DNA from: Vicinamibacteria bacterium
Lineage (GTDB): Bacteria; Acidobacteriota; Vicinamibacteria; Vicinamibacterales; UBA8438
Assembly (NCBI GenBank): GCA_022820825.1
Contig: JAJEEU010000034.1
Span: 5,030-69,029 of the forward strand
DNA: 64,000 bases
Reading direction: 5' to 3'
The stretch's first letter is position 1. Every line of letters begins with the position of its first letter. Made by a program: the position numbers and the translations under genes. This document shows, in pieces, positions 6,686-50,689 of the stretch. The notes under the pieces were generated by a model, which worked only from the letters and a program-made list of their open reading frames with translations, did no database searches and was not told where the DNA came from.

Positions 6686-7777
6686 CTACTCCTCGGCCAG
6701 GTACGGCACGGCCGGCTCGCGGATGCCGGGGTGGCCGGCCTCCTTCCGCTGGCGGGACACCCGCGCGGCCGCCTCCAGCGCCTGCTGCTCGTCGGCGCGG
6801 CCGCCGCTGAGCAGGTTCGGCATGCCGTGGTTCCCCTCGTGGCACGCGTACTCGAAAAGATGGTTGAGCGGGTTGCCGCCGGTGTCGCGCCGCGTCATCG
6901 GGATGGACAGCGTGTACGGCCGCGTATAGATCTCCGGATCCTCGATCGTGAGCTCGTAGTCGATCGAGTTGGCGTCGCGCAGCGTGAACCGCTCCACCAC
7001 GCGCAGCGTGCCGCCGGGTCCGCGGTGCCCCGTCTGAATGATGTGCGACGGCTGGTAGTCGCCGCCGTCCAGCCGGTTGTTGAAGCGCTCGGTCTCGACG
7101 ACGAGCGTATCGCCCTCCCAGCGGCCGCGGCTGTCGCCCAGCCACTGCCGCACGCCGTCGGCGACGTGGGGCCGCCCGTCGAGCGGAATGATGCGCGCTT
7201 CGTGGATCATCTCGATGACGATGGCCACGTAGTCCTGCGTCTGCAGGATCTGGTAGTTCGCGTTGTAGCCATTGGGGATCATCGCGACCGGCATGGTCCG
7301 CGAGATGCAGCGCTCCCAACTGTTGCGGTCGAGCCAGGAATCGGCCTCGCCGCGCCCGTCGCGCGCGTTCTCGCGCTCTATCAGCCGCTGCTTCGCCGCC
7401 GGCAGCAATTCGGGGATCCGCCCGTCCGGCGGGTCGACGATGAGCGATTCCCGGATCATCGTCCCCGACCGCTCGATCCACGCGGCGCCGGTGCCCTGCG
7501 TGGCGGCGATCACGGCCTGCTGCGCGAGCTGGCCGCGCTCCTTCTCCGCTTCGGTCAGGCGCTCCATCGGGGTGTCGGTGGAGTTGTTCCACACGCCGCG
7601 CAGGTCGGGGTCGCCCCACGCGGTGCGCGGCAGCTCGCCGTCCGCGGGCGGCAACAGCCCGTCCAGGCTGGTCGGCGCCCCCGAATACAACCGGTCGCCC
7701 TGCCCCGCCGCGGGCGCGGCGAAGGCGGCGAGCAGGATGATGAACGCCCCGGTGACCGACAGGTATCGATAGCTCAT
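6686..7777 (-). CDS. secreted 'YACHEGN' family protein, paralog 1 of 7 (function unknown)
   Basis: Start at MSYRYLSVTGAFIILLAAFAAPAAG (signal peptide). Family motifs: PRTAWGDPDLRGVW, SLIVDPPDGRIP, ERCI, EMIHEARIIPLDGRP, SRGRWEGDTLVVET, VERFT, FEYACHEGNHG. Confidence 0.8.
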   Translation of the reverse strand: MSYRYLSVTGAFIILLAAFAAPAAGQGDRLYSGAPTSLDGLLPPADGELPRTAWGDPDLRGVWNNSTDTPMERLTEAEKERGQLAQQAVIAATQGTGAAWIERSGTMIRESLIVDPPDGRIPELLPAAKQRLIERENARDGRGEADSWLDRNSWERCISRTMPVAMIPNGYNANYQILQTQDYVAIVIEMIHEARIIPLDGRPHVADGVRQWLGDSRGRWEGDTLVVETERFNNRLDGGDYQPSHIIQTGHRGPGGTLRVVERFTLRDANSIDYELTIEDPEIYTRPYTLSIPMTRRDTGGNPLNHLFEYACHEGNHGMPNLLSGGRADEQQALEAAARVSRQRKEAGHPGIREPAVPYLAEE

Positions 7778-7864
7778 GCAACCCTCCATTGCTCACTGCG
7801 CAATACACCATCCCGCGCGGCCGTTGTCAACCGGCGCGGGCGGTTGCGCGGCGGCTGCCATTGG

Positions 7865-7893
7865 TTGACGACCTCCCGGCGCGCGGGTAGACT
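7865..7893 (+). promoter_or_regulatory. candidate sigma70-like promoter TTGACG-17 nt-TAGACT upstream of the ankyrin gene at 7921
   Basis: Hexamers are at 7865-7870 and 7888-7893 in the 143-bp divergent intergenic region. The -35 overlaps the right arm of the inverted repeat GTCAACC (7826-7832) / GGTTGAC (7863-7869). Promoter rules for this lineage are unknown. Confidence 0.3.
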
Positions 7894-7920
7894 GCGATAT
7901 TCGCTTCTTTCAACCCGAGA

Positions 7921-9570
7921 ATGGCCTCCATGCGCAATCGTGATGCGTTGAGCGGGATTTCCCGTTTCATGCTCCTCGTTCTTGTGCTGGCGACTACGGC
8001 GGTGGGGGCCGGCGCCGCCGACCTGCCGCTCGTCAGCGCCGCCGCGCAGCAGGACTGGCCGCAGGTACGCACGCTGCTGGCGGAAGGCGCCGACGTCAAC
8101 GAACGCCGCGCCGACGGCGTCTCGGCGCTGCTGTGGGCCGCCCACTGGGACCACGTCGAAACGGTCGAGGCGCTGCTCGCGGCGGGCGCGAACCCCAACG
8201 CCGCCACCGACCACGGCGTGACGCCGCTCATGCGGGCGAGCGAGAACGCCAGCGTCGCGGCAGCCGAAGCGCTGCTGGCCGCCGGCGCGGACCCCGACGC
8301 CGCGCAGACCAGCGGGCTCACGGCGCTCATGATCGCCGCCGACACCGGCGACCGCGACGTGGTGCGCGCCCTGCTCGCCAGCGGGGCCAACGTCAACGCG
8401 GTGACGCCGAGCACCGGGGCAACGGCGCTGATGTGGGCCGTGGAGGCGCCGCATCCTGCTGTCGCGCACATCCTCCTGGAGAGCGCGGCCGACGTGAGCG
8501 TGTCGTCGAAGAAAGGTTTCACGCCGCTGCTGCTCGCGGCGCGCAACGGGGACGTCGAGCTGGCGCGGCTGCTGATCGCGGCGGGCGCCGACGTTAACGA
8601 GCCCGGCTCGGACGGCAGCCACGCGCTGCCGCTGGCCATCATCAGCGGCCACGATGCGTTCGCGATGTTCCTGCTGGAGCAGGGCGCCGATCCGCGCGGC
8701 ACGATCGACGGCGTACCCGCGATCCATGCCGCCGCCGGCGATGTCACTACCTGGCTCGTGGACTGGTACCGGGAACACGGCGGACGCCGGGCGGTGGACG
8801 CCGGCGGGCGCGGGATAAGCGGGCTGAGTCCCGCGCGGCGGCTGCCGCTGGTCGAGGCGCTGCTGGCGCGCGGCGCCGACCCCAATGCGCGGATCGACAA
8901 GTCGGCGGTCGTGCTGAGCTACATCGGAACCACGCGCTACGGCGTATTCGAGCAGAACTCGGTCGGCACCGGGGACGTCCGCGGCGCGACGCCGCTCTGG
9001 GTGGCCGCCAAGTCGTCCAACGGCGGCGGCCTGCAGGGAGAGCAGGGCCCGCCCTCGCAGTACCGCTACGACAGCAGCGCGGACATCATCCGCGCGCTCG
9101 TCGCGGCCGGCGCCGACCCGAACCTCACGACGGACGACGGCACGACCCCGCTCATGATGGCGGCCGGGCTGGGCGTGCGGTCGCACCAGCCGCTCATGCC
9201 GCGCGGCAGGCCGTCGCCCCCGGCCGAGGCAGCCGTGCGGGCGCTGGTCGAAGCGGGCGCGGAGGTCAACGCCAGCAACAACGGAGAATTCACGGCGCTG
9301 CACGGCGCCACGTTCCGCGGCCTCAACGAGGTGATTCAGTACCTCGTAGAGCAGGGCGCCGACATCGACGCGCGCGACTACCGCGGCCGCACTGCGTACC
9401 GGATGGCGGAAGGCGCCAAGCAGTCGTTCCAGTACCAGGCGTTTCCCGAAACCGCGGAGTTCCTCGTGCAGCTCGGAGCCAACCCGCGCCTGGGCATACC
9501 GGGAACCATTCACGAGCGCGCGGACCGGGAAGCGCTCGCCGAGACCGTCGGCGGCTCCGACAGCCGCTGA
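7921..9570 (+). CDS. exported ankyrin-repeat protein (triad 2)
   Basis: 549 aa. Hydrophobic signal FMLLVLVLATTAVGAGAA is followed by DLPLVSAAAQQDWPQVRTLLAEGADVNERRADGVSALLWAAHWDHVE and more than 10 ankyrin repeats. Confidence 0.85.
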   Translation: MASMRNRDALSGISRFMLLVLVLATTAVGAGAADLPLVSAAAQQDWPQVRTLLAEGADVNERRADGVSALLWAAHWDHVETVEALLAAGANPNAATDHGVTPLMRASENASVAAAEALLAAGADPDAAQTSGLTALMIAADTGDRDVVRALLASGANVNAVTPSTGATALMWAVEAPHPAVAHILLESAADVSVSSKKGFTPLLLAARNGDVELARLLIAAGADVNEPGSDGSHALPLAIISGHDAFAMFLLEQGADPRGTIDGVPAIHAAAGDVTTWLVDWYREHGGRRAVDAGGRGISGLSPARRLPLVEALLARGADPNARIDKSAVVLSYIGTTRYGVFEQNSVGTGDVRGATPLWVAAKSSNGGGLQGEQGPPSQYRYDSSADIIRALVAAGADPNLTTDDGTTPLMMAAGLGVRSHQPLMPRGRPSPPAEAAVRALVEAGAEVNASNNGEFTALHGATFRGLNEVIQYLVEQGADIDARDYRGRTAYRMAEGAKQSFQYQAFPETAEFLVQLGANPRLGIPGTIHERADREALAETVGGSDSR

Positions 9571-9585
9571 GCCACGGGCCGCCAT

Positions 9586-12009
9586 ATGCCGCCGCGCATC
9601 GCGATCGTCATCGGCGGCACGCTGGCCTTCGTGGCCGGCGCCGCCGCGGAGACCGCCGCCCAGGCGCCCTCGCGCGCGCTCCTCGACCGCTACTGCATCA
9701 CCTGCCACAACGAGCGGCTGCAGACCGCGAACCTGGTGCTGGATCGCGTCGATCTCGACAGGGTCGGCGACCATGCCGAAGCCCTCGAAAAGGTCGTGCG
9801 CAAGCTGCGCGCCGGGCAGATGCCGCCGGAGGGCCGTCCGCGGCCCGCGCGCGAGGATGTCGAGACGTTCGTCGCGGCGCTGGAGACGGCGCTCGATCGC
9901 GAGGCCGCGGGCCGGGTCGCGCCGGGCCGCGTCGCGTCGCGGCGGTTGAACCGGGTCGAGTACGTCAACGCCATCGAGGATCTGCTGGATCTGCAGGTCG
10001 ACGGGAACGAGCTCCTCCCGAGCGACATGGCGGGGTTCGGGTTCGACAACAACGCGGAAGTGCTGGCGATGACGCCGTCGCTCATGGCGCGCTACATCGC
10101 GGCCGCGACGAAGATCAGCCGGATGGCCGTGGGGAGCCCGGACAACAGCCCCGACGGCCGTCTCTATACGCTCGGCTTCGAGCAGCAGGACGAGCGCATG
10201 CACGAGGACATGCCGTTCGGCACCCACGGCGGACTCGCCGCGCGGCACATCTTTCCGCTCGACGGCGAGTACCTCTTCTCGATTCGCATGGAGCGCGGCC
10301 TGGGCGATACCAGCGGCCGTGTCAGGGGCATCGCCGAGGACGCCCACGACATCGAGCTGCGGATCGACCATGCGCTGGTCGAGCGCTGGAGCATCGGTGG
10401 CAGGTTCCCCGGGCAGATACCGGGGCTCGCCATCGCCGACGACGACGTCAGGTCGCTCCGGACCCATGAATACCGCATGACGGCGGACCACGGCATGGAC
10501 ATCCGCCTGCAGGTGGAGGCCGGCCAGCGGCTGGTGAGCGTGGCCTTCACCGATTCGAACCCCTCGCCCGTGGACGGGGTCTACGGCCGGCCGGGGATCT
10601 ACAGCCTGTTCATCGCCGGCCCCTACGACGGGACCGTTCCCGACGAGACGCCGAGCCGCGCGCGGATCTTCATCTGCCGGCCGGCCGGCGCCGCAGCGGA
10701 AGACGAGGCGGACTGCGCGCGCGAGATCCTGGGCACGCTGGCGCGGCGGGCCTACCGGCGGCCGGTGACGGAGCGCGATCTGGACGTCCTGCTGCCGTTC
10801 TACGAGGACGGCCGGCAGGAGCGCGACTTCGAGTACGGGATCGAACGCGGGCTCGAGGCGATACTGTCGATGCCGGAGTTCCTGCTGCGGGCGGAGCGGC
10901 AGCCGGCCGGCGTCGCCGCGGGCGAGCCGTACCGCCTGTCGGACCTGGAGCTGGCCTCCCGCCTCTCGTTCTTCCTGTGGCGCAGCATTCCGGACGACGA
11001 GCTGCTGGATGTCGCCGCGGCGGGCCGGTTGAACGATCCGGACGTGCTCGACCGGCAGGTGCGGCGGATGCTGGCCGATCGGAAGGCCGTCCGCTTCATG
11101 AACGACTTCGTCGGCCAGTGGCTGCAGGTGCGCAACATCAACGAGCAGTCGCCGGACGGCGGCCTGTTCGCGCAGTTCAACGACACGCTCCGCAAGGCCA
11201 TGGTCAGCGAGACGGAGCTGTTCTTCCGGAGCCAGGTGCGCGACGACCGGCCGATCCCCGAGCTGCTGCGGGCCGACTACACCTATCTGAACGCGCAGCT
11301 CGCGGGGCACTACGGCATCGACGGCGTGTACGGCAGCCGCTTCCGCCGCGTCGAGCTCGACGACGACCGGCGCCACGGCCTGCTGGGGCACGCCAGCATC
11401 CTGACCATCACCTCGTATGCGAACCGCACGTCGGTCGTGCTGCGCGGCAAGTGGATGCTGGAGAACATCCTCGGCGCCCCGCCGCCGGCGCCGCCGCCCA
11501 ACGTCCCGCCCCTGGAAGAGAACGACCCCGCCGGCGAGCCGACCTCGCTGCGCGCGAAGATGGAGCAGCACCGCGACAACCCGGTATGCGCGAGCTGCCA
11601 CGCGATGATCGACCCGCTGGGGTTCGCGCTGGAGCACTACGACGCGATCGGCCGCTGGCGCGAGACGGACCGGGGCGCACCCATCAACGCGACGATCGAC
11701 TGGCGCGGGCAGACCATCGACAGTCCGCGCGCCTTTCGCGAAGCGCTGCTGGGCCGGGGCGCCACCTTCGTGGATACGGTCGCCGAGAAGCTGCTTACCT
11801 ATGCGCTGGGGCGCGGCCTGAGCTACCGGGACGCGCCGACAGTCCGGCAGCTCGTGCGCGACATCGCACGGGACGGGCAGCGCTGGTCGTCGCTGATCAA
11901 CGGCATTGTCGCCAGCACGCCGTTCCGGATGCGGCAGGCACCACCTGCCGCCGGGCTCGTCGCCTCCGCGGAGGTTGCGGATTCGGCGCGGCGGAGCGAT
12001 AATCGCTAG
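9586..12009 (+). CDS. DUF1592/DUF1588/DUF1585-type di-haem cytochrome c domain protein (triad 2)
   Basis: 807 aa. RYCITCHNERLQTANLVLD and NPVCASCHAMIDPLGFALEHYDAIGRWR carry the two CxxCH motifs. It is collinear with the paralogs at 2732, 25449 and 36073. Confidence 0.85.
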   Translation: MPPRIAIVIGGTLAFVAGAAAETAAQAPSRALLDRYCITCHNERLQTANLVLDRVDLDRVGDHAEALEKVVRKLRAGQMPPEGRPRPAREDVETFVAALETALDREAAGRVAPGRVASRRLNRVEYVNAIEDLLDLQVDGNELLPSDMAGFGFDNNAEVLAMTPSLMARYIAAATKISRMAVGSPDNSPDGRLYTLGFEQQDERMHEDMPFGTHGGLAARHIFPLDGEYLFSIRMERGLGDTSGRVRGIAEDAHDIELRIDHALVERWSIGGRFPGQIPGLAIADDDVRSLRTHEYRMTADHGMDIRLQVEAGQRLVSVAFTDSNPSPVDGVYGRPGIYSLFIAGPYDGTVPDETPSRARIFICRPAGAAAEDEADCAREILGTLARRAYRRPVTERDLDVLLPFYEDGRQERDFEYGIERGLEAILSMPEFLLRAERQPAGVAAGEPYRLSDLELASRLSFFLWRSIPDDELLDVAAAGRLNDPDVLDRQVRRMLADRKAVRFMNDFVGQWLQVRNINEQSPDGGLFAQFNDTLRKAMVSETELFFRSQVRDDRPIPELLRADYTYLNAQLAGHYGIDGVYGSRFRRVELDDDRRHGLLGHASILTITSYANRTSVVLRGKWMLENILGAPPPAPPPNVPPLEENDPAGEPTSLRAKMEQHRDNPVCASCHAMIDPLGFALEHYDAIGRWRETDRGAPINATIDWRGQTIDSPRAFREALLGRGATFVDTVAEKLLTYALGRGLSYRDAPTVRQLVRDIARDGQRWSSLINGIVASTPFRMRQAPPAAGLVASAEVADSARRSDNR

Positions 12010-12038
12010 TCGACGGTCGCTTGGAGAGGAAGCGCCCC

Positions 12039-13385
12039 ATGTTTATCGCCAGGAAGCACTTGCCGCGGCGCACGGTGTTGAGAGGTTTGGGAACGGCGCT
12101 TGCGCTGCCCTTCCTCGACAGCATGGTGCCGGCCCTGACGGCACTTAGCAAGACCGCGGCCGCCCCGGTGAGACGGTTCGGGGTCTTCTACGTGCCCAAC
12201 GGCATGTCGATGCCGTTCTGGTCGCCCGAGCGCGAGGGCCCGCTCGACGAGCTGCCGCCCATCCTGCGCTCGCTCAACGACCTCAAGGAGCACGTGCTCA
12301 TGTGCGGCGGCCTCGACGACGAGGCGGCCAACATGGTGAAGGGCGGCGGCGACCACTCGCGCTCGGCCGGGACCTTCCTGACCTGCGTGCCGTACAAGCT
12401 CACCGCCGGCGCCGACGTGTACGCCGCGGTGTCGATGGACCAGATCGCGGCGCGCGAGCTCGGCAAGCAGACGCAGTTGACCTCGCTGGAGCTCGGCATC
12501 GAGTCGAACTCGATGCTCGGGTCGTGCGACGGCGGCGCAAGCTGCGCGTACACGAACACGGTGGCCTGGCGCACGCCGACCACGCCGCTGCCGATCGAGA
12601 ACAATCCGCGCGCCGTCTTCGAGCGGCTGTTCGGCGCGAGCGGCACGACCGACCCCGAAGCGCGGCAGGCACGCATGCGCCGGGACCGCAGCCTGCTCGA
12701 CGCGGTAAACGGCGAGCTGAAGCACCTCGGCCTGTCCCTCGGAGCGGGCGACCAGGTCAAGCTGGACGAGTATCTCGAGGCGGTGCGCGACGCCGAGCGC
12801 CGGATCCAGTTGGCGGAACGCCAGAGCGCGACGGAGCTTCCCGTTGTGGACCGGCCGATCGGCACGCCGAGCGATTACGCCGAGCATGCGAAGCTGCTGA
12901 TGGACCTGCTGGCCCTGGCGTATCAGACGGACATGACGCGCATCAGCACCTTCATGCTGGCGCGCGAGGTGAGCTCGCGGGCGTATCCCGAGATCGGCGT
13001 CTCGGATTCGCACCATCCGCTGTCCCACCACCAGGACCGCCCGATCAACCTCCAGCGGCTGGGCGTGCTCAACGAGTACCACTTCCGGCAGTTCGCCCAC
13101 CTCGTCAAGCGGCTTGCGGAGACGCCTGAAGGCGACGGGACGATGCTCGACTCCACGCTGTTCCTGTACGGGACGGGGATCAGCGACAGCAACACCCACT
13201 TCCACGAGGATCTGCCGATTGCCCTGATCGGCGGCAGGTCGACGGGGATCACCGGCGGGCGCTACGTGCGCTATGCGGAGGGCACGCCGCTGGCGAACCT
13301 GCACACGACCGTCCTCGAGATGCTGGGCACACCCGTCGAGAGCTTCGGGGACAGCACCGGCAGACTCAAGCGCCTGTCGGTGTAG
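12039..13385 (+). CDS. DUF1552 (HxxSHH) family protein (triad 2)
   Basis: Start re-called to MFIARKHLPRRTVLRGLGTALALPFLDSM, with GGAGAGGA 8 nt upstream. Motif SDSHHPLSHHQD is present. It is paralogous to the other three DUF1552 genes. Confidence 0.85.
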   Translation: MFIARKHLPRRTVLRGLGTALALPFLDSMVPALTALSKTAAAPVRRFGVFYVPNGMSMPFWSPEREGPLDELPPILRSLNDLKEHVLMCGGLDDEAANMVKGGGDHSRSAGTFLTCVPYKLTAGADVYAAVSMDQIAARELGKQTQLTSLELGIESNSMLGSCDGGASCAYTNTVAWRTPTTPLPIENNPRAVFERLFGASGTTDPEARQARMRRDRSLLDAVNGELKHLGLSLGAGDQVKLDEYLEAVRDAERRIQLAERQSATELPVVDRPIGTPSDYAEHAKLLMDLLALAYQTDMTRISTFMLAREVSSRAYPEIGVSDSHHPLSHHQDRPINLQRLGVLNEYHFRQFAHLVKRLAETPEGDGTMLDSTLFLYGTGISDSNTHFHEDLPIALIGGRSTGITGGRYVRYAEGTPLANLHTTVLEMLGTPVESFGDSTGRLKRLSV

Positions 13386-17370: not shown

Positions 17371-18351
17371 ATGACTGGACGATTCTTCGCAGCCGTGTTC
17401 GTCGTATTCGCCGTCCTGCTGCTCGCGGCGGGCGCTGCCCGCGCCCAATCCGACGCGGCGCCGAGGACCGCGTGGGGGGCGCCGGACCTGCAGGGCGTCT
17501 GGGACTTCCGCAGCCTGACGCCGATGCAGCGTCCGGAGGAGTACGCCGCCGGCGAAGTGCTCACCGCCGAGGAGGCCGCGGCTTTCTCGCAGGAGGTCAT
17601 CGCGAGCCGCAGCCGCGACTCGGAGACCTCGGACCGCGCCGCGCGGGCCGCGCAGGGCGACATCATTCCCTACAACGACTTCTGGTTCGACGAAGGCACG
17701 TCGGTCACGCGGGACCGGCCGTCGCTCATCGTGGACCCGCCCGACGGACGGCTGCCGGCCTATACGGCGGCCAAGCGCCGGGAGCTCGACGAGCTGGCGC
17801 GCGCCCGCCGGGGCGTGTCGAGCCACGAGCCGACGCCGGGCGGCTTCGTCGAGGACCTGGGACCGGGCGGCTTGCAGGTGCGCTGCATCCTCGGCTTCAA
17901 CTCCGGACCGCCGATGGAACCGAGCGGCTACAACACCAACGTGCAGCTCTTCCAGACCGAGGACCACGTGGTGCTGCTCACCGAGATGGTCCACGACGCG
18001 CGCATCGTGCCGCTCGACGAGCGTCCCACCCTGCCCGCGGCGTTGCGCCAATGGCGGGGAGACTCGCGCGGCTACTGGGACGGCGACGCGCTGGTCGTGG
18101 AAACCACGAACTTCCTGCGCGAGACGAACTTCCTGCAGGATGAAGCCGGCCGGCACCTCAAGCTGACCGAGCGCTTCACGCGCGCCGACGCCGACACCCT
18201 GCTCTACCGCGTCACGGTCGACGATCCCACCACGTGGGTCAGACCCTGGACCTACGAGGTGCCGATGCAGCGGAATCCGCACCCGCTGTACGAGTACGCC
18301 TGCCACGAAGGCAACTACGGGCTGTACAACATCCTTTCCGGCGCGCCGTAG
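17371..18351 (+). CDS. secreted 'YACHEGN' family protein, paralog 2 of 7
   Basis: RBS GAAGGAGGG precedes the start MTGRFFAAVFVVFAVLLLAAGAARA. Motifs: PRTAWGAPDLQGVW, SLIVDPPDGRLP, VRCI, EMVHDARIVPLDERP, SRGYWDGDALVVET, YEYACHEGNYG. Confidence 0.85.
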   Translation: MTGRFFAAVFVVFAVLLLAAGAARAQSDAAPRTAWGAPDLQGVWDFRSLTPMQRPEEYAAGEVLTAEEAAAFSQEVIASRSRDSETSDRAARAAQGDIIPYNDFWFDEGTSVTRDRPSLIVDPPDGRLPAYTAAKRRELDELARARRGVSSHEPTPGGFVEDLGPGGLQVRCILGFNSGPPMEPSGYNTNVQLFQTEDHVVLLTEMVHDARIVPLDERPTLPAALRQWRGDSRGYWDGDALVVETTNFLRETNFLQDEAGRHLKLTERFTRADADTLLYRVTVDDPTTWVRPWTYEVPMQRNPHPLYEYACHEGNYGLYNILSGAP

Positions 18352-20033: not shown

Positions 20034-20972
20034 TCAGGGCGCTTCGGCCCGTTCCACCGCGCGGGCGCCGCTGAGCGAGTTCGGCAGGCCGTAATTGCCC
20101 TCGTGGCACGCATACTCGAAGAGGTCGTAGTCCGGGGAGCGGTTGAGCGGCATCGACGCCGTCCAGGGTTGCTCGAACGCGTTCGGATCGCCCACCGTCA
20201 CGTCGTAGCGGATGGTGTCCCGATCGACCCGCGTGAAACGCTCCACGACGCGTAGTGCCTCGCTCTGCGGGATCCCCCGCAGGCGCAGCGTCGTCAGGTT
20301 CGTGCCTACCGTGCCCTTGTCGTTGTAGTTGGCCGTTTCGACGACGAGGGTAGCGCCCTCCCAGCGCCCGCGCGAGCTGCCTTCCCACTGCCGGATGCGT
20401 GCCGGGAGCGCGGCCCGATTGTCACCCAGCGGGATGATGCGCGCCGCGTGAATCATCTCGGACAGGATCACCACGTAGCCGGGGACCTGCAGGATCAGGT
20501 GGCCGGCGTTGTAGGTCGGGAACATGGCGCCCGGCACGCCGCGCGTGATGCAGCGCTCCCACGGAGTGTGGAACAGCCACGAATCGGTCAGGCGCTCGAG
20601 CCGGTCGTCGCGCACCGCGGCCGCCGCCGGCAGAATCGGCAGCCGCCCGTCCGGGGGATCCACGACCATGGAGCGCCGCACGGCGCTCGGCGCGGCCGCC
20701 ACCTCGCCGCTGAAGTCCGGCGATGGATTCGGTCCCGTGATGCCTCCACCGGAACGGTTGATGCCCGGAAACCAGAGAGCCAGGGCATCGAGATCCCGCC
20801 ACGCTTCAACGCTCGCTGCCTCGAGCGGCGTGCGGTCGAAGTTGGTCCAGACTCCCTGGATGTCCGGCTGGCCATCGGGCGTGCGGGCCGGTGACGGCTG
20901 CTGCGCACCGGCCGCCAACGCCGTTGCGAGGATCGCGGTCGCGATGGCCGGCGCCGCGAGGTAACGCCTCAC
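20034..20972 (-). CDS. secreted 'YACHEGN' family protein, paralog 3 of 7
   Basis: GTG start at 20972 (VRRYLAAPAIATAILATALAAGA); an alternative ATG is at 21011. Motifs: PDGQPDIQGVW, SMVVDPPDGRLP, ERCI, EMIHAARIIPL, SRGRWEGATLVVET, FEYACHEGNYG. Confidence 0.8.
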   Translation of the reverse strand: MRRYLAAPAIATAILATALAAGAQQPSPARTPDGQPDIQGVWTNFDRTPLEAASVEAWRDLDALALWFPGINRSGGGITGPNPSPDFSGEVAAAPSAVRRSMVVDPPDGRLPILPAAAAVRDDRLERLTDSWLFHTPWERCITRGVPGAMFPTYNAGHLILQVPGYVVILSEMIHAARIIPLGDNRAALPARIRQWEGSSRGRWEGATLVVETANYNDKGTVGTNLTTLRLRGIPQSEALRVVERFTRVDRDTIRYDVTVGDPNAFEQPWTASMPLNRSPDYDLFEYACHEGNYGLPNSLSGARAVERAEAP

Positions 20973-21000: not shown

Positions 21001-21900
21001 TCACGGACCACCGGAGACCGCCCCCGTCACGACGAAGGTGACGTCGCCCGTCGTCGCGAGCCCGCCGTCGTGGGCCTGTGCACGCAGCACGTAGGTTCCC
21101 GGCGCGCTGAAGGTCGCGCGCGCCTTCCAATTGTTCCCGGGTGGGGGATCGGGCGTGACCCAGCCGGGACCCCAGGGGGAGTTGGAGTCCTCCCGCGTGT
21201 CTTCCCACACCTTGACCTGCGGCGGATCGAAGGCGACCGCGCCGGCGCCGCGGTAGACGAACCACGAGAACCGCAGACCCGTCGCGGCGACGGGCGCCCC
21301 TGCGCCCGTCGGACGGCGGTGGCGCGCCTTGGGCGCCGGCATGCCGTCGGGATCACGCACGACGGCCGACAACGCTACCGCGTCTCCGACCGTCGCGTGC
21401 CGGGTCGGGGCGCCGTCCACGCTGAGCGTCGGCGCGACGTTCTTGTGGAGCTGGCCGATGATGCCGGCCCCGTTGTTGGCGATGATCACGCTGTTGTCGA
21501 CGAAGTAGTCGGGCTTCAGGGTGGCGTAGGCGCGCTTCGTTTCCCCATTGGGGCTGGTGAGCGTCCAGACGACCTCCTGCGCGCCGAAGTCCGCCGCGAC
21601 GCGCACGCGGAACAGGAAGCGGTTGCGCCGCGGGAGAAACCAGGTCGGCTGTCCGCGGTCGGGTCCGCCCGGTTCGATGTGGTTGTCGGGTCCGACCGGA
21701 ATATGCAGCTCCTGCTTCCAGTTGCGGTTCATCGTGCCGAATACGAGGTTGAACGAACCGTCCGCGTTCCGCTCCCATCCTTCGTATACCGGCACCACCT
21801 CCTGGCCGCTGTCGTAGGAGCGCTGGCTGCGCTGGGCGCCGGGCTCCGCGGCCCAGCCGGCAGTCAGGATCAGCGCCAGCAGCCAGCCGGCGCGCTTCAC
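21001..21900 (-). CDS. exported hypothetical protein with a C-terminal Ig/PKD-like region
   Basis: GTG start at 21900 overlaps the upstream TGA (GTGA), giving VKRAGWLLALILTAGWAA. The C-terminus LSAVVRDPDG...TFSAPGTYVLRAQAHDGGLATTGDVTFVV looks PKD/Ig-like. No named family recognised. Confidence 0.6.
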   Translation of the reverse strand: MKRAGWLLALILTAGWAAEPGAQRSQRSYDSGQEVVPVYEGWERNADGSFNLVFGTMNRNWKQELHIPVGPDNHIEPGGPDRGQPTWFLPRRNRFLFRVRVAADFGAQEVVWTLTSPNGETKRAYATLKPDYFVDNSVIIANNGAGIIGQLHKNVAPTLSVDGAPTRHATVGDAVALSAVVRDPDGMPAPKARHRRPTGAGAPVAATGLRFSWFVYRGAGAVAFDPPQVKVWEDTREDSNSPWGPGWVTPDPPPGNNWKARATFSAPGTYVLRAQAHDGGLATTGDVTFVVTGAVSGGP

Positions 21901-23303: not shown

Positions 23304-23393
23304 CGGACCGACTCCTTCGGGATTGGCCGGCAGCACGATCCGTGAGCCGGCGTTGCGCCGTTCCCGCCGCCGCGCGCCGGAGCGAGCGCGGCC

Positions 23394-25316: not shown

Positions 25317-25448
25317 GCGGAACCACTTGTACATCAACGGGCGGAGGAAGTCACGCTGGAATTCGGCAAGTAGTAGTAGAATATGGAGCATCTTGGGGGC
25401 GGTGTACGTACGCACCGGGCAGCGTCCCCGGCCCTGAAAGAAGCCACT

Positions 25449-29239: not shown

Positions 29240-29264
29240 GCGGCGCGGCAGCACGGAGACCCGA

Positions 29265-31266: not shown

Positions 31267-31671
31267 TCACCTGCCGGTTTCGATTTCCGCCGCGGAACCG
31301 CCCAGGAACAGCCGCTTGCCGTCGGCGAGCGTGAAGTCCCTGCCCACGCCCTTGTTCGTGCCGTCCTTGGCCTGGTAGCCGTCGACGACGAGCTCCGTGC
31401 CGATCGCCAGCGTATTCTTCGTCACGCCCAGCCTGATGAGCTGGTTGGGACTGCCGCCCTCGATCATCCACGTGGTGACGCTCCCGTCCACGTCCTCCAC
31501 GTCGATGTGGAACCACGAGTGCGGATTGATCATCTCCCACTTGACGAGCTTGCCGCGGAGCTGCAGGGGGCGGTCGACGTCGAACTCGGCCGAAAAGGCG
31601 TGGTGCGCCCAGCCGGGCGCCGCAAGCTGCAAGCCCGCGGCGGCCAGTGCGGCCACTCTCAGCATTCGCAT
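31267..31671 (-). CDS. small exported protein, DUF6152-like (HHxxxAEFD N-terminus)
   Basis: Start re-called to MRMLRVAALAAAGLQLAAPGWA, with GGAG upstream. The mature N-terminus is HHAFSAEFDVDRPLQLRGKLVKWEMINPHSWF. The family assignment is from memory only. Confidence 0.55.
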   Translation of the reverse strand: MRMLRVAALAAAGLQLAAPGWAHHAFSAEFDVDRPLQLRGKLVKWEMINPHSWFHIDVEDVDGSVTTWMIEGGSPNQLIRLGVTKNTLAIGTELVVDGYQAKDGTNKGVGRDFTLADGKRLFLGGSAAEIETGR

Positions 31672-36076: not shown

Positions 36077-38628
36077 GACTGTGAGCTCCTCATCTGAAAC
36101 GGCGCGCTCCTGGCGATTCCCAGGACGATCGCGGACCAACGATAGTCGTTTTCGGCGGCCTCGCGCACTATGCCTCGAACGGCAGGCATGTCGTAGTGCT
36201 CTATGCCACGGCCGAGCGCGTAGGTCAACAACTTCTCGGTAACCGTGCGCACGAACTGCTCGCGGCGGTCGTGCAGCAGATCCCGCAGCCCCGCCAGCCC
36301 GGCGATGCGCGTGCCGTCCGGCAGCACCGCCGACGGATCGATGGCGGCGCCCTCGTCGACCGCGCGCCAGGCGCCGGTTGCGTCGAACGACTCGAGCGTG
36401 AACCCCAGCGGATCGATCGACGCGTGGCAGCCGGCGCACGCGGGACTCCGCCGATGCGCCTCCAGGCGCTCGCGCACGGTGGCGTGCTCCCCGTCCGCGC
36501 CACGCTCTGGCAGCGCCGGCACGTCCGCCGGGGGCGGCGGCGGGGGCGTGCCGAAGATGTTCTCGAGCAGCCACTTGCCGCGCAGCACGGGCGACGTGCG
36601 GTTGGGATACGAGGTGACGGTCAGCACGCTGCCGTGGCCGAGCAGTCCCCCGCGCCGCCCGTCGCTCCAGGCCACGCGGCGGAAGCGGTTGCCGTACACG
36701 TTCGGCACGCCGTAGTGCCGCGCCAGCCTCTCATTGAGATACGTGTAGTCGGCGCTCAGCAGCTCCGGTACGCCGCGATCCTCGCGAATCTGGCTCTCGA
36801 TGAAGAGCCGCGTCTCCTGCAGGAGCGCTGCGCGCAGGTTGTCGTCGAAGTCGGGAAACTCGGCGGGGTCCGGATACACGGTCTCGACGTTGCGCACGTG
36901 GAGCCATTGGCCCGCGAATCCGTCGACCAACGTCGCCGCCCGCGGATCCGCCAGCATGCGCCGCACCTGGCGTTCCAGCACGCCGGCGTCCCGCAGCTCG
37001 CCCCGCGCCGCCGCCTCCAGCAGCTCGTCGTCCGGGATGCTGCTCCACAGGAAGAACGACAGCCGCGAGGCCAGCTCCAGGTCGCTGACCCGATAGGGCG
37101 CGCCCGGCGCCGCGTGCGGCGCGTCGCGCTCGATGCGGAACAGGAAGTTCGGGTCGACCAGCAGCCGTTCGAGCGCCAACTGGATGCCCGCGTCGAAGCT
37201 GCCCTTCTCCCGGCCCGCGGCATAGAACTCCAGCAGGGTCTGCAGTTGCCGGTCCGTGGCGGGCCGGCGGTACGCCGCAGTCGCGATCCGGGTGAGGATC
37301 CTGATGGCGCAGGCCTGCTCGTCCGCGGCGCGCAGCGGGCGGCAACCGAAAATCGCGTTGCGGCTGGGCGTCTCCCCCACCCCTTCCTGCGCGTAGGGGC
37401 CGCTGATGACGACGCTGCCCACCGCCGGGAAGCCGTCCGGCATGGCGTCGATGGCCAGGGCGAAACCGTACGGACGGGGCTGGAGCACGCCGTCGGGCTC
37501 CCAGAGCTGCCGCAGGAACGCCACGACCACCCGGCGGGGCCCGGCCTGCACCGGCAGGCGCAGCACCAGATCCTCGTCCGCATGCTGCATGTAGTGCTCC
37601 CATTCGAGGCTGCCCAGGATGTTGCCCTCGTAGCTCTCCGGGGCGGCGCCCGGCGCGCGGTACTGCGTGCGCTGCCCGGCTACCCCGAATGCGAGCTGAC
37701 CCCGCGCCGGCGCCGGCGCCGCCGTCGTGTCGCGCGGCGTGCCGGGCGCTGCCGCGTCCGCGTCGGCCGCGGGGGCGTCTCCGCCCACGGTGAACAGCTC
37801 GACGCGCTGTCCGTCCAGGCGGACCTCGACCTGATGCGCCGAGTTCAGGCCGCGAATGTAGTCGACGTAGTTGGTCTGCAGATCGACCCTGATGACGTAT
37901 TCGCCGTCGACGGGAAAGTTGTGGGTGAAGGCGGCGCCGCCGCGCGAGCCGAGCGGAAAGTCCTCGCTCAGGCGATCCTCCTGCACCAGGTTGATGGGGA
38001 CGTCGTAGGTCTCGACGACCGGCTGCTGCGGCAGTCCCACGGCAAGCCGGCTGACCTTCCGCGCGGCCGACAGGTAGCGCTCCATCAGCGCCGGCGAGAC
38101 CGTCAGCACGCCGGCCATGTTGTCGAATGCGTAGCCCGGCGCGTCGGCCGGCAGCAGCTCGGCGACGTCGACGTCGAGCGCCAGCAGGTCGCGGACGGCG
38201 TTCTGGTACTGCCCCCGGCTGAGGCGGTGGAACGCGGCGCTGCGCCCCGGGTTGGGGCTGGCGGCGGCCGCCTGATCGAGCGACGCTTCAAGCTGCGTGA
38301 CGAAGGCGTCGAACGCGGCCTGATCGGGCCGTGGACGACCAGGTGGCGGCATCGCGCCCATCCGGATTTTCCGGATTACCCGCTCCCACACCTCGGCTCC
38401 GGCGCCCACGCTCGCCGTGTCGATCGTGTCGAGCGCCAGGCCGCCGGTCCGCAACCTGTCGTTGTGGCAGGTCACGCAGTACCGATCGAGGAGCGGCCGC
38501 AACTGCGAGGCTGGAGGGGAATTCGAAACCGTGGACGCCTGCTGCGGGCTGCCGGCATGCAAGGGCGCCGCACACAGCACCGCAACGCCCGCTGCGAAGG
38601 CCGCCGTCCCACCCTGGCCCCGGCGCAT
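36073..38628 (-). CDS. DUF1592/DUF1588/DUF1585-type di-haem cytochrome c domain protein (triad 4)
   Basis: RYCVTCHNDRLRTGGLALD and SPACAGCHASIDPLGFTLESFDATGAWR carry the CxxCH motifs. Start is taken at MRRGQGGTAAFAAGVAVLCAAPLHA (38628); an alternative ATG is at 38673. Confidence 0.8.
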   Translation of the reverse strand: MRRGQGGTAAFAAGVAVLCAAPLHAGSPQQASTVSNSPPASQLRPLLDRYCVTCHNDRLRTGGLALDTIDTASVGAGAEVWERVIRKIRMGAMPPPGRPRPDQAAFDAFVTQLEASLDQAAAASPNPGRSAAFHRLSRGQYQNAVRDLLALDVDVAELLPADAPGYAFDNMAGVLTVSPALMERYLSAARKVSRLAVGLPQQPVVETYDVPINLVQEDRLSEDFPLGSRGGAAFTHNFPVDGEYVIRVDLQTNYVDYIRGLNSAHQVEVRLDGQRVELFTVGGDAPAADADAAAPGTPRDTTAAPAPARGQLAFGVAGQRTQYRAPGAAPESYEGNILGSLEWEHYMQHADEDLVLRLPVQAGPRRVVVAFLRQLWEPDGVLQPRPYGFALAIDAMPDGFPAVGSVVISGPYAQEGVGETPSRNAIFGCRPLRAADEQACAIRILTRIATAAYRRPATDRQLQTLLEFYAAGREKGSFDAGIQLALERLLVDPNFLFRIERDAPHAAPGAPYRVSDLELASRLSFFLWSSIPDDELLEAAARGELRDAGVLERQVRRMLADPRAATLVDGFAGQWLHVRNVETVYPDPAEFPDFDDNLRAALLQETRLFIESQIREDRGVPELLSADYTYLNERLARHYGVPNVYGNRFRRVAWSDGRRGGLLGHGSVLTVTSYPNRTSPVLRGKWLLENIFGTPPPPPPADVPALPERGADGEHATVRERLEAHRRSPACAGCHASIDPLGFTLESFDATGAWRAVDEGAAIDPSAVLPDGTRIAGLAGLRDLLHDRREQFVRTVTEKLLTYALGRGIEHYDMPAVRGIVREAAENDYRWSAIVLGIARSAPFQMRSSQS

Positions 38629-38636
38629 CGGCTGCT

Positions 38637-39218
38637 CTATTTCACTTCCGCTTTGCGCATGCCGGGCTTCCACGGCGGCGGGGGCACGTACCCGTCCCGG
38701 TTCGGCATCTCGATTTCGCGCAGCGCCCTGGCGTCGATCAGGTCGGTCTCGCCGACGATGCCGTTGAGGTACAGCAGGTAGCCCGTCAGGCTGTAGATCT
38801 CGTCATCCGTGAGATAGCCGCGCTGGTTGAGCGGCATCGCCTTGTTGATGAAGCTCCAGATGAGGGGCGCGAAGGGAAAGTTCGAGATGCCGCGTCCCGG
38901 GAAGTTCTGGCCGGCGTGTCCCGCCGTGCCAGCCGGGTAGGTTTCCATCTGCAGGGGTCCGACGAAGCGCGGCGCCGGACCCTCGGCGCCCGTGGGGCCG
39001 TGGCACTCGCCGCAGCGGCGGCGCTGGTAAATCACCGCGCCCTGCTCGGCCGTGCCGCTGCCCGGCGGCAGCCCCTCGCCCATCGGCCCGATGGCCTCGT
39101 CCCAGGGGTGCAGCTCCTCGTCGGTGGGCGTGCGGCCCAGGCCGTAGGTCGACCCCTGCGCCTCCGCCGCGCCGGTCCACGCCAGCACCAGCACGGCCGC
39201 GAGCAGGCTAAAACGCAT
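38637..39218 (-). CDS. mono-haem cytochrome c subunit (SoxD/SorB-like partner of the molybdoenzyme)
   Basis: Start re-called to MRFSLLAAVLVLAWTGAAEA. Haem motif RRCGECHGP. It lies immediately downstream of, and overlaps by 11 nt, the sulfite-oxidase-family gene. Confidence 0.7.
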   Translation of the reverse strand: MRFSLLAAVLVLAWTGAAEAQGSTYGLGRTPTDEELHPWDEAIGPMGEGLPPGSGTAEQGAVIYQRRRCGECHGPTGAEGPAPRFVGPLQMETYPAGTAGHAGQNFPGRGISNFPFAPLIWSFINKAMPLNQRGYLTDDEIYSLTGYLLYLNGIVGETDLIDARALREIEMPNRDGYVPPPPWKPGMRKAEVK

Positions 39219-48056: not shown

Positions 48057-48085
48057 GCGGGCCTCCGGGCTGCAATACTATCGCG

Positions 48086-48565: not shown

Positions 48566-48570
48566 CCGCC

Positions 48571-49602
48571 CTACCGGGAGGCGGCTTCCGCCGCCTCGCG
48601 CGCCCGCTCGCCCGCCAGCATGTTCGGCATGCTGTAGTTCCCCTCGTGGCAGGCGTATTCGAACATGGCATCGTCGGTGCGCAGCATCGGAATCGATACC
48701 GTCCAGGGCCGGCTCCAGATGCCGGGGTCGTCAATCGTGGCCACGTACTCGAGCGTGTCGGCGTCGATGCGCCTGAACCGCTCCACGAGCCGCAGGTCGC
48801 CGGTCGTCCGCAACCGGCCCATCGGGTTGGCCGTGGTCCACAATCGTTCGGCGACGAAGTTCGCCGTCTCGACAACCAGGGTGTCGCCGTCCCAGCGGCC
48901 GCGCGCGTCCCCGGCCCACTGCCGCATGTGGGCCGGCAGCGCGGGACGGCCGTCCAGCGGAATGACGCGCACCGTATGGATCATCTCGGCCACCAGCAGC
49001 ACCCAGTCCTCGTTCTGCACCACGAGCAGGTTCTGGTTGTAGGCTGCCGGGAGGATGGGCGGGCCGTTGTTGACGCCGATCAGGCAACGGTCGGTGCCGT
49101 CGAAGTCGAGCCACGAGTCGGCCGGATGCTCCCGTTGATATTCCCTGTCGCGCTCGACCTTGCGCCGGCCGGCGTCCGAGTATGCCGGCAGCCGCCCGTT
49201 CGGCGGATCGACGACCAGCGACGTGCGCCGCGTGCCGACCGTGCGCGTGCCGGTGTCCAGCCAGAAGTTGTTGTAGAACCCCGGCGTGCCGTCGGCGCGC
49301 TGGTCCACGCTGCCGCCGGCGGCGGTCGTCTCGGGCGGCCGGGTCAGCAGGTACTCGTTGCGGTCGATGACCGCCTGCTCCTGGCTCGCGGCCTCCTCCT
49401 CCGTGAGGAATTCCCTGTCGCCCAGCTCCTCGGGCCGCTCCAGGGGCGTGATCGTGCGGTGGTCCCACATGCCCTGCAGGTCGGGATGGCCCCAGGGCGT
49501 GCGCAGCGCGTCACTCTGGGCGAACGCCGGCCCGCCGGCGAGCGCGACCGCGCCGGCAAACAGGGCCGCGCAGGCTACCCGCGTTCGAATCGGTCGAGTC
49601 AT
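48571..49602 (-). CDS. secreted 'YACHEGN' family protein, paralog 6 of 7
   Basis: RBS AAGGAGG precedes MTRPIRTRVACAALFAGAVALAGGPAFA. Motifs: LRTPWGHPDLQGMW, SLVVDPPNGRLP, DRCL, EMIHTVRVIPLDGRP, ARGRWDGDTLVVET, FEYACHEGNYS. Confidence 0.85.
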   Translation of the reverse strand: MTRPIRTRVACAALFAGAVALAGGPAFAQSDALRTPWGHPDLQGMWDHRTITPLERPEELGDREFLTEEEAASQEQAVIDRNEYLLTRPPETTAAGGSVDQRADGTPGFYNNFWLDTGTRTVGTRRTSLVVDPPNGRLPAYSDAGRRKVERDREYQREHPADSWLDFDGTDRCLIGVNNGPPILPAAYNQNLLVVQNEDWVLLVAEMIHTVRVIPLDGRPALPAHMRQWAGDARGRWDGDTLVVETANFVAERLWTTANPMGRLRTTGDLRLVERFRRIDADTLEYVATIDDPGIWSRPWTVSIPMLRTDDAMFEYACHEGNYSMPNMLAGERAREAAEAASR

Positions 49603-49651
49603 CTCGGTCCTCCTTCTCGTCGGCGCGTCACGGCGCCGTCCGCGGCCACGG

Positions 49652-50689
49652 CTACTCGCGCGCCTCTTCCGCACGTGCGCCCGCCAGGATGTTGAACAGG
49701 CCGTAATTGCCCTCGTGGCACGCGTACTCGTACAGCGGCAGGTCACTGCGGCTCATCGGCAGGCGGCCGGTCAGCGTGCGCGTGAACGTTTGCGGATCGT
49801 TGATCGTGAACTCGTACTCCAGCGTGCCGGCGTCCGTGCGCGTGAAGCGCTCCGTCAGGTGCAGGGAGCCGCCGGTGCCGAACGCCATCGAACGGAAGCC
49901 GCCCAGCTCGGAATCGAACGCCATCGGGCTGAAGCTGGCAACCTTGTCGGTGAAGTTCGTCGTCTCCACGACCAGCGTATCGCCTTCCCACCGGCCGCGC
50001 GAGCTGCCCAGCCACTGGCGGATGCCGGACGGCAGGGCCGGGCGCCCGTCCACCGGGACGACGCGCACGTCGTGGACCATCTCGGCGAGCAGCACGACGT
50101 AGCCCTCCGCCTGGAAGATCTGGATGTTGTTGTTGTAGCCGCCGGGCAGCATCGGCGGACCCGTGCTGAAGCCGACGATGCAGCGCTCGGCCAGGCCGCG
50201 GTCCTCCGGGCCGTCCGACCCGACGCCGGTGGCGCGCAGACGGACCGGTCGCTCGCCGGCGTCGCGGTGCGCCGCCGCCCGGCGCTGCTCCGCCTCCGTC
50301 CGCGGCGGGATGCGGCCGTCCGGGGGATCGACGAGCAGCGACGGCTGCGTCAGCGCCTCGGCCCGCGAACGCTCGGTCCAGAACGACTGGTTGTAGCCGC
50401 CGGTCTGCCCTTCTGGCGGGCGCGTATCGTCCCGGCCGACCGCCTCGTCGCTGAGGCGCTGCGCGATGACGGCCGCCTCCTCCTCGGTAAGCACATCCCG
50501 GCCCGCCAGCTCGGCCGGCTTCTCGAGCGGCGTGAACGTCCAGTACTCCCACACGCCCTGCAGGTCCGGATCGCCCCACGGCGTCCGCGGCGCCGCGCCG
50601 GAGGCGCCGCCCTGCGCGGCCAGCGGCGCGACAGCCAGCGCCACGAGCATGGCAGCCAGCGCCGCCGTGCCGATCGATACAAGCTTCAT
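49652..50689 (-). CDS. secreted 'YACHEGN' family protein, paralog 7 of 7 (tandem with paralog 6)
   Basis: RBS GGGGAGG precedes MKLVSIGTAALAAMLVALAVAPLAA. Motifs: PRTPWGDPDLQGVW, SLLVDPPDGRIP, ERCI, EMVHDVRVVPVDGRP, SRGRWEGDTLVVET, YEYACHEGNYG. Confidence 0.85.
   Translation of the reverse strand: MKLVSIGTAALAAMLVALAVAPLAAQGGASGAAPRTPWGDPDLQGVWEYWTFTPLEKPAELAGRDVLTEEEAAVIAQRLSDEAVGRDDTRPPEGQTGGYNQSFWTERSRAEALTQPSLLVDPPDGRIPPRTEAEQRRAAAHRDAGERPVRLRATGVGSDGPEDRGLAERCIVGFSTGPPMLPGGYNNNIQIFQAEGYVVLLAEMVHDVRVVPVDGRPALPSGIRQWLGSSRGRWEGDTLVVETTNFTDKVASFSPMAFDSELGGFRSMAFGTGGSLHLTERFTRTDAGTLEYEFTINDPQTFTRTLTGRLPMSRSDLPLYEYACHEGNYGLFNILAGARAEEARE

Follow-up and report, generated by a model that had tools for sequence, protein, structure and literature searches.

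Seven genes in a 64,000-nucleotide stretch of DNA from a Vicinamibacteria bacterium (contig JAJEEU010000034.1 of assembly GCA_022820825.1, positions 5,030 to 69,029; hereafter the window) encode members of a very large, unnamed protein family, in which a predicted barrel of known type is combined with a distinctive architecture and distinctive partners. As far as the alignments tell, the constant core of these proteins is two Cys residues, several acidic residues and two Arg residues, not a His site; the C-terminal third is predicted to form a calycin-type barrel; and, by sequence comparison, a highly conserved sister clade, reported here for the first time, fuses a monohaem cytochrome c to the full family domain. 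We lean, tentatively, towards the reading that the family is a periplasmic redox module coupled to cytochrome c, catalytic or cofactor-holding, and not a passive carrier.

The seven copies (par1 to par7) are listed below. Triads are clusters of three genes, for an exported protein with ankyrin repeats, a PSD/PSCyt protein of the DUF1592 type and a DUF1552 (HXXSHH) protein, and dN/dS (the ratio of nonsynonymous to synonymous substitution rates) is given relative to orthologues of par2 to par5 on a collinear, 96-97% identical contig (JAJDXB010000141.1 of GCA_022825285.1; locus L083).

par1, 6686..7777, minus strand, 363 aa: first gene of the triad-1 operon, abutting the ankyrin gene at 5190-6689
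par2, 17371..18351, plus strand, 326 aa: 88 nt downstream of an RND permease gene; AlphaFold subject; dN/dS 0.10
par3, 20034..20972, minus strand, 312 aa: last gene of the cassette par4 / 21897-23336 / 21001-21951 / par3; dN/dS 0.07
par4, 23394..24383, minus strand, 329 aa: downstream of a DUF6282/amidohydrolase-like gene, divergent from triad 3; dN/dS 0.15
par5, 31683..32765, minus strand, 360 aa: in the same-strand run triad 4 > VOC > par5 > DUF6152 > 30774-31244; dN/dS 0.23
par6, 48571..49602, minus strand, 343 aa: second gene of a tandem pair
par7, 49652..50689, minus strand, 345 aa: first gene of the tandem pair

An earlier sequence-only reading of the window had proposed these seven open reading frames (ORFs), and at these coordinates and strands all of them translate without internal stops, into products of 312-363 aa. 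The window has a GC content of ~70%, rising to ~0.9 at third codon positions (GC3) in the par frames, and this codon-position phase assigns coding to the par strands and frames, so that the long overlapping antisense ORFs are shadows. For par3, the public gene call on the syntenic contig begins 13 codons earlier; for par4, the assembly index has no entry with the exact sequence. The dN/dS values of 0.07-0.23 for par2 to par5 belong to genes that are, by this comparison of sequences, real and under purifying selection. Identity is 42-46% to par1 and 42-50% among the seven copies, with 58 invariant columns in a MAFFT alignment. These columns cover every motif of the ordered series that the earlier reading had described, and the order is kept; its literal patterns were slightly over-specified. 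Most copies match them, while par3, par4 and par6 each deviate from two or three of them at one residue (as in ARTPDGQPDIQG, SMVVDPP and ERL), the motifs still being homologous.

The signal peptide proposed for each copy was borne out by heuristic reading, with a short n-region, an h-region in which 12-14 of 14 residues are hydrophobic, and A-x-A/G followed by Q. The same inspection of the seven copies found neither a lipobox Cys at the cleavage site nor a consistent twin-Arg motif, so that the signal, as judged from its sequence, is of the Sec type and not of the Tat type, and the paralogs appear to be exported. The CXXCH haem-attachment motif is absent from all seven mature sequences, and the family members are therefore not c-type cytochromes. 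Their ACHE motif contains a single Cys, and the other invariant Cys, that of R-C, is ~140 residues closer to the N-terminus.

The family had been described as one without a name, and our searches agree. None of the seven copies matched Pfam-A (2025 copy) at E<=1, NCBIfam 20.0 gave only noise of 10-13 bits, and in a Pfam scan of 144 diverse members at E<=1, 143 gave no weak match to any consistent family. PDB sequence searches with profiles of 7 and of 144 sequences returned only a chance match (E 0.6) to 2qgu, covering the signal-peptide/PDLxG region. Thus, no characterised enzyme family was matched in Pfam, NCBIfam or PDB sequence searches, and a literature search on the motif, DUF6152, DUF1552, DUF1592 and PSCyt found no functional study. 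A profile search of a 5.8-billion-sequence collection, on the other hand, returned at least 8000 proteins with E-values down to 1e-234, which excludes chance as the source of the family likeness; for every database homologue listed, the precomputed Pfam entry was "-" and the sole name "hypothetical protein". Exhaustive HMMER search of the representatives of clusters at 50% identity gave 26,759 clusters at E<=1e-3, 14,512 at E<=1e-10 and 3,198 at E<=1e-30. Genome matches fell mostly in the Vicinamibacterales and Bryobacterales (Acidobacteriota), with further carriers in Pseudohongiella, Porticoccaceae, other Gammaproteobacteria and Holophagales. Within the representative set, six of the seven copies have a closer relative outside the window than inside it (par4 is a near-tie), indicating that the duplications are old. 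With 26,759 clusters and closer relatives elsewhere for six of seven copies, recent local duplication does not explain the shared motifs. Soil and marine Acidobacteriota, as well as oligotrophic Gammaproteobacteria (Pseudohongiella, Porticoccaceae), carry the family abundantly and in multiple copies, and it deserves a definition that would give thousands of "hypothetical proteins" a common label.

Residue conservation was determined over 144 diverse members with ~40% pairwise identity and is given in par2 numbering. G126, R171, C172, G230, E267, E308, C311 and E313 are conserved in 100% of members, and E205, R211 and N315 in at least 99%. The earlier reading had taken two Cys and two His to be invariant; this holds for both Cys (144/144), whereas the His of EMxH (H208) is conserved in 83% and that of CHEGN (H312) in 95%. 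Among 94 full-length copies of the fetched loci, 87 have a His after the Cys of the C-terminal motif, and 85 of these 87 also have R-C. The exceptions carry E-Y-R-C-I-E-F, E-F-K-C-V-E-F or D-Y-D-C-V-D, and the E-Y-R-C-I-E-F and D-Y-D-C-V-D types are true relatives by hhalign. Such divergent relatives lose the His and Asn of CHEGN, with the His replaced by I, V or W, and keep both Cys and only [E/D]-x-x-C-x-[E/D]. Because the His residues are not invariant, a metal or haem site built on them cannot define the family, and a family-wide site of this kind was ruled out. Haem attachment through a single Cys (XXXCH-type) is unlikely on the alignment, since the His is dispensable while both Cys are invariant. 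Disulfides are usual in exported proteins, and the two invariant Cys may well form one between the C-terminal and R-C loops. For their part, the invariant acidic and basic residues would make up a single conserved polar site.

An AlphaFold model of par4 from 60 sequences reached a predicted local distance difference test score (pLDDT) of 74.5, and one of par2 from 144 diverse sequences reached a pLDDT of 87.5 and a predicted template modelling (TM) score of 0.85. After the signal helix, the par2 model has a short strand at PDLQG, helices at residues 66-80, 88-94, 133-147 and 160-170, and eight strands within residues 190-302, mostly at pLDDT >90, followed by a C-terminal coil with E-Y-A-C-H-E-G-N and a final helix. 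Foldseek searches of the PDB with both models returned the same class of proteins, namely FABP, CRBP, CRABP, tardigrade SAHS, UnaG and NanoLuc and, more weakly, lipocalins and nitrophorins; the best matches had probability 1.0, E ~7e-4 and a target-normalised TM of ~0.5 over ~119 columns. No whole-chain structural match was found for either model by Foldseek against the PDB, and nothing reached E 0.03 against the viral library BFVD. According to the models, then, the C-terminal third is a calycin-type barrel, and the other two thirds are without a structural relative in the PDB and BFVD libraries. The closed antiparallel up-and-down barrel of 8-10 strands that characterises calycins is present in the predicted structure, and the barrel groups with calycins at the level of this predicted fold and with no curated family at the level of sequence, there being no lipocalin or FABP match in Pfam for the seven copies or the 144 members. 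One hhalign comparison, of alignment A3 with the Lipocalin_5 domain of family member P0224, gave 98% probability, an artefact of P0224 being itself part of A3; with A2 instead, the probability was 0.4%.

Comparison with the calycins (FABP, CRBP, CRABP, SAHS, UnaG, NanoLuc, lipocalins) thus shows a predicted up-and-down antiparallel barrel of ~115 residues that superposes, but no detectable sequence relation and coverage of about a third of the family protein (TM ~0.5, E ~1e-3). Relative to calycins, the family adds an N-terminal region of ~160 residues, a conserved Cys-containing C-terminal loop and bacterial export, and in the model the interior and nearby residues appear dominated by invariant charged side chains.

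The sister clade came to light through a gene at L011:8971-10221, whose product carries a monohaem cytochrome c domain in its N-terminal part (PF13442, E 4e-13), with the family domain behind it (hhalign probability 99.8%, E 4.5e-29). A search with this protein gave 7,504 matches at E<=1e-10, of which the best 120 all contain PF13442, are 326-505 aa long, share 65-91% identity and bear only the names "cytochrome c553" and "cytochrome c5". In P0413 (335 aa), the order is signal peptide, CQLCH haem domain, GPRTPEGQPDLNGIW, RRC, YEFAHAVRII and GDSRGHWEGDTLVVDT, and after this VERYT, YEVTIEDP and DYDCVD. The fusions share with the canonical family PDL.G.W, R-C, E-x-x-H..R, GDSRGxWEGDTLVV, ER, Y..T..DP and the second Cys, and they occur in the same genomes as canonical members and DUF6152, adjoining them. 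They differ in the N-terminal CQLCH monohaem domain, in having D-Y-D-C-V-D in place of E-Y-A-C-H-E-G-N, in degenerate DPPDGR and TPLERP motifs and in being far more conserved; like the canonical members, they are uncharacterised. The PDB relatives of the fused protein cover the haem domain only, the best being the cytochrome subunit of p-cresol methylhydroxylase. An analogy, and no more, may be drawn with quinohaemoprotein and flavocytochrome c dehydrogenases (e.g. PchC), in that the sister clade pairs a monohaem cytochrome c with a non-haem domain and stand-alone family copies adjoin cytochrome c-bearing dehydrogenases; the non-haem domain of the family, however, is neither a PQQ (pyrroloquinoline quinone) propeller nor a flavoprotein.

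Other architectures were also encountered. In P0153, the family domain is preceded by a toroid-like N-terminal domain that bears CxxCH, and P0001 and P0002 are genuine two-copy tandem fusions. P0003 and P0004 (463-482 aa) were rejected as new architectures, being read-through calls across tandem copies. In P0138 and P0146 (665 aa, on different contigs), an ankyrin-repeat protein is joined to a par4-like member; as the junction removes the family signal peptide and first motif (PDLQG), this candidate 'Rosetta stone' fusion is probably an indel or gene-call artefact and was counted as adjacency only.

The fusion gene lies in a small operon in L165, in the L166-L169 group (a single contig recovered from several samples) and in L011, where it is followed by a canonical family gene (FEYACHEGN) and then by a gene for DUF6152. 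The first two genes overlap by 4 nt in L165 and L166-L169, and more family copies lie nearby; in L005, an orthologue of the fusion gene stands beside DUF6152 and further family copies in a different order. In the window, par5 is followed, after 11 nt, by

DUF6152 gene, 31267..31671, minus strand: 11 nt downstream of par5; the most consistent operon partner in other genomes

Translational coupling between DUF6152 and a family gene is common (gaps of -4 to 16 nt). In 14 of 14 aligned copies (the window copy and 13 from L002-L076), the mature N-terminus, directly after the A-x-A of the signal peptide, is His-His-(A/S)-F-x-A-E-F-D, and all 14 also share the motif W(I/V)NPH.W(I/L)H. The likeness of these motifs to those of His-brace proteins suggests a putative metal site of that type; a PDB sequence search for DUF6152 returned nothing.

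We then considered the neighbours of the family in other genomes. The family-centred loci are the best 80 by similarity and not a random sample, so that their counts, which have no genome-wide background, are indications only. In 65 of the 80, GC content was sufficient for phase-based gene calling, and features were counted within +-8 kb:

two to four family copies: 34/65 loci
PQQ dehydrogenase with cytochrome c domain: 22/65 loci
DUF6152: 10/65 loci
DUF1552: 9/65 loci
DUF1592: 8/65 loci
homologues of 21897-23336: 7/65 loci
ankyrin: 7/65 loci
metallo-beta-lactamase (MBL) fold: 7/65 loci
serine beta-lactamase fold: 7/65 loci
NHL repeat protein: 6/65 loci

Among same-strand neighbours with a gap of <120 nt (n=77), DUF6152 came first (10), followed by PQQ/cytochrome c proteins (5-6); the remaining close neighbours were scattered hydrolases, CoA transferases and similar genes. 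A haem-c-bearing neighbour (PQQ-cytochrome c, DUF1592 or a 21897-type gene) was present in 30 of the 65 loci, and CxxCH occurs in 5.8% of all genes called in them. The link between the family and the triads, which the sequence-only reading had put forward, is real in the window and optional elsewhere: DUF1552 was found in 9 of the 80 family-centred loci and, in the reverse test, of the 39 metagenome loci around DUF1552 that span at least 7 kb, 35 contain DUF1592, 34 an ankyrin gene and 11 the family. The triad itself is a tight unit and the family an optional neighbour, whose commoner partners are other family copies, PQQ dehydrogenases with cytochrome c, and DUF6152.

If the family is a redox-coupled module, each paralog would be a soluble protein exported by Sec to the periplasm, with a mature chain comprising an N-terminal helix and loop region (PDLQG, DPPDGR), an eight-stranded calycin-type barrel and a C-terminal E-Y-A-C-H-E-G-N loop stapled to the R-C loop by a disulfide of the invariant Cys pair. 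E205, R211, E267, E308, E313, R171 and N315, usually together with H208 and H312, would make up one polar site at or in the barrel, and since thousands of paralogs share this site, a single binding partner or a single reaction should be common to them all. Candidates for the site are a metal ion or small cofactor acquired in the periplasm; alternatively, the Cys pair might itself serve as redox couple. The variable N-terminal loops would then determine which substrate or partner is recognised. Export by Sec excludes cofactors that are loaded in the cytoplasm, such as flavin, Fe-S clusters and the molybdenum cofactor, so that any cofactor must be acquired in the periplasm. The domain would work with c-type cytochromes: the cytochrome c fusion and the haem-c-bearing neighbours of the stand-alone copies lead us to read it as the catalytic or cofactor-holding part of cytochrome c-linked oxidoreductase systems in the periplasm. 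Together, the Sec signal, shared charged core, variable loops, fusion, coupled operons and haem-c neighbours favour such a module over its rivals.

Several points weigh against this interpretation. Calycin barrels are mostly binding proteins and not enzymes, and the Foldseek matches are weak and cover only ~119 of 326 residues. The immediate neighbours are mostly heterogeneous single genes (hydrolases, a CoA transferase, amidohydrolases), which an accessory binder or the clustering of exported genes would explain equally well, and the enrichment of haem-c neighbours, drawn from the best 80 loci, lacks a proper genome-wide control. Additionally, the partner in a cytochrome c fusion may be a docking domain with no catalytic activity, and no copy of the cytochrome c fusion lies within the 64-kb window.

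A more far-reaching proposal, which we regard as speculative and improbable when taken as a whole, is that the family is the catalytic core of an unrecognised class of cytochrome c-linked periplasmic oxidoreductases on a calycin barrel. Such a core would rely on a metal centre of carboxylate and His ligands or on a redox element formed from Cys, either a redox-active disulfide or a cross-linked cofactor derived from the protein, and DUF6152 would be its metal partner of the His-brace type. The PSCyt(DUF1592)/DUF1552/ankyrin systems and the acidobacterial quinoprotein-like dehydrogenases would obtain from the stand-alone paralogs the catalysis or substrate recognition that they lack. The compact invariant core, the conserved cytochrome c fusion and the small operon of fusion gene, family gene and DUF6152 make the family experimentally tractable. 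Its gene neighbourhoods consist almost wholly of uncharacterised exported proteins (among them PSCyt/DUF1552 pairs, exported ankyrins and DUF6152), and solving it could reveal periplasmic chemistry of its carriers, such as the oxidation of recalcitrant organic matter.

It is unlikely that the family is instead a passive periplasmic carrier of the FABP or lipocalin kind, which would hand hydrophobic or amphiphilic ligands to neighbouring enzymes or to an outer-membrane or RND transporter, the paralogs differing in ligand. Such a role would be consistent with ligand-binding calycins as the sole structural relatives, with the fusion of one member (P0224) to a Lipocalin_5 domain, with the very heterogeneous neighbours, with multiple and tandem copies as in binding-protein families, and with the copies that adjoin RND or TonB-type outer-membrane genes. 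However, pocket residues normally diverge at 40% identity, whereas here seven charged or polar residues and two Cys are conserved at >=99% over the 144 members; no ABC, TRAP or TTT permease is a recurrent neighbour, and the conserved cytochrome c fusion would have no obvious purpose.

Rather more doubtful is a non-catalytic handler of metals or cofactors, with an acidic site that binds Ca, Fe, Mn, a lanthanide or PQQ, which the protein would supply or buffer for quinoprotein-type dehydrogenases nearby or for DUF6152. The core is rich in Glu, Asn and Arg, PQQ dehydrogenases are the commonest non-self neighbour (in Acidobacteriota and Gammaproteobacteria alike), and the neighbouring dehydrogenases resemble the NCBIfam 'acido-empty-quinoprotein' group, below its cut-off. 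The invariant N-terminal His-His and NPH.W.H motif of DUF6152 would also fit a handler, as would the FUR and RND genes beside par2 and the MerC gene in the syntenic contig. Dozens of diverged paralogs per neighbourhood are nevertheless not expected for a single chaperone function, the frequency of PQQ neighbours is only ~2x that around DUF1552 genes (7/39), and the metal site is read from residue types alone.

We consider it very unlikely that the family has no specific partnership at all, its members being independent exported proteins (e.g. a hydrolase, isomerase or oxygenase that needs no cofactor, or a protein with a stress or structural role) and its neighbourhoods simply islands of exported catabolic genes. 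Roughly half of the adjacent genes occur at one locus only, and cofactor-free enzymes exist on this fold, NanoLuc being among the Foldseek matches; yet the operons are translationally coupled, as in the 4-nt overlap of fusion and family genes and the -4 to 16-nt gaps to DUF6152, and a cytochrome c domain is fused to the family domain.

Annotation of ~45 neighbouring genes of the window with Pfam confirmed four triads, in which the DUF1592-type proteins are ~810-870 aa long and have a cytochrome c domain:

triad 1, 1380..6689, minus strand: ankyrin 5190-6689, DUF1592-type PSD/PSCyt 2732-5182, DUF1552 1380-2735
triad 2, 7921..13385, plus strand: ankyrin, DUF1592-type protein, DUF1552
triad 3, 25383..30770, plus strand: DUF1592-type protein, DUF1552, ankyrin
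triad 4, 33319..38673, minus strand: DUF1592-type protein, DUF1552, ankyrin

As had been pointed out, a paralog lies within ~1.1 kb of every triad. Triad 1 is abutted by par1, which heads its operon and is divergent from triad 2 across 143 nt; par4 is 999 nt from triad 3, and par5 is 553 nt from triad 4, on the same strand and with intergenic gaps of 8-22 nt. The word 'interleaved' in the sequence-only reading implied that the family might be a dedicated fourth component of the ankyrin-DUF1592-DUF1552 system, which is the least probable of the alternatives and highly improbable: in its favour are the copies within ~1 kb of all four window triads (two in the same operon), direct adjacency in L010, L015, L048, L057, L060, L080, L120, L137 and L153, and the two 665-aa ORFs that join an ankyrin protein to a family member, but these ORFs are without the family signal peptide and first motif and may be indel or gene-call artefacts, the counts of 9/80 and 11/39 contrast with those of ankyrin (34/39) and DUF1592 (35/39) in triad loci, and a co-occurrence of 28% could be near chance if the family copy number per genome is high.

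The family is thus not a constant part of the PSCyt/DUF1552 system, the function of which is itself unknown (He et al., PMC5615132). The 'Planctomycete-specific cytochrome c' pairs of PSCyt/PSD (DUF1592) and DUF1552 are found in shared neighbourhoods and operons with the family, both in the window and in ~10-30% of related loci; like the family they are exported and multi-copy, but they have no homology to it and the co-occurrence is optional. In this lineage, DUF1592/DUF1552 pairs are nearly always joined by a gene for an exported ankyrin-repeat protein (loci L085-L164), which is placed either divergently upstream or directly downstream.

The remaining genes of the window include two loci that recur elsewhere beside family members:

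two unannotated exported genes, 21001..23336, minus strand: between par4 and par3; the pair recurs flanked by family members
sulfite-oxidase-like Mo enzyme and cytochrome c gene (SorAB-like), 38637-40458, minus strand

The placement of par3 and par4 on either side of the 21001-23336 genes, like the tandem arrangement of par6 and par7 (gap 49 nt), is as the earlier reading described it. Its label 'Cu-monooxygenase-like' for 21897-23336 found no database support: the product has a CQTCH haem motif and His-rich motifs (HH, HxH, HxH...M) and no match in Pfam, NCBIfam or the PDB. For 21001-21951, there was likewise no match in Pfam, NCBIfam or the PDB, and no recognisable feature. The cassette of family, 21897-type, 21001-type and family genes recurs in L040 and L120 and partly in L029, and loci homologous to 21001-23336 are L040, L120, L029, L006, L017, L068 and L080. 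The SorAB-like pair recurs beside triads and family members in L081/L082 (2723-4577) and in L029; in L081/L082 the run is MoOx-cyt c-PQQ-VOC-DUF6503-family-MBL-DUF6526.

Downstream of par6/par7 are acyl-CoA dehydrogenase and CoA-transferase genes, and the RND permease gene that precedes par2 adjoins a FUR gene. Elsewhere, the window contains genes for a TonB-type outer-membrane protein, a gamma-glutamyltranspeptidase, a Rieske oxygenase, two soluble PQQ glucose/sorbosone dehydrogenases and one protein of the PQQ alcohol-dehydrogenase type; there are no pqq biosynthesis genes in the window. PQQ-propeller dehydrogenases such as those at 60822-62642 (minus strand) of the window and at 5726-7963 of L004 score below the cut-offs for the TIGR03075 methanol/ethanol family and for TIGR04528, 'acido-empty-quinoprotein group A', and many have an N-terminal cytochrome c domain.

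The 1.68-kb segment at 18352-20029, between par2 and par3, has a GC content of 62.8%, carries a DUF3800 gene and a helix-turn-helix gene, and is absent from the collinear contig JAJDXB010000141.1, where par2 and par3 are spaced by 21 nt; it is probably a small mobile insertion. In the same contig, a MerC gene lies between the RND and FUR genes. Finally, an ORF at 47945-48565 (plus strand) ends in ...CAACHAAHR and has no Pfam match. A CXXCH near the C-terminus is the typical position in four-helix cytochromes of the cytochrome c' type. The 5' end of this ORF overlaps the acyl-CoA dehydrogenase gene, and its true start is therefore probably further downstream.

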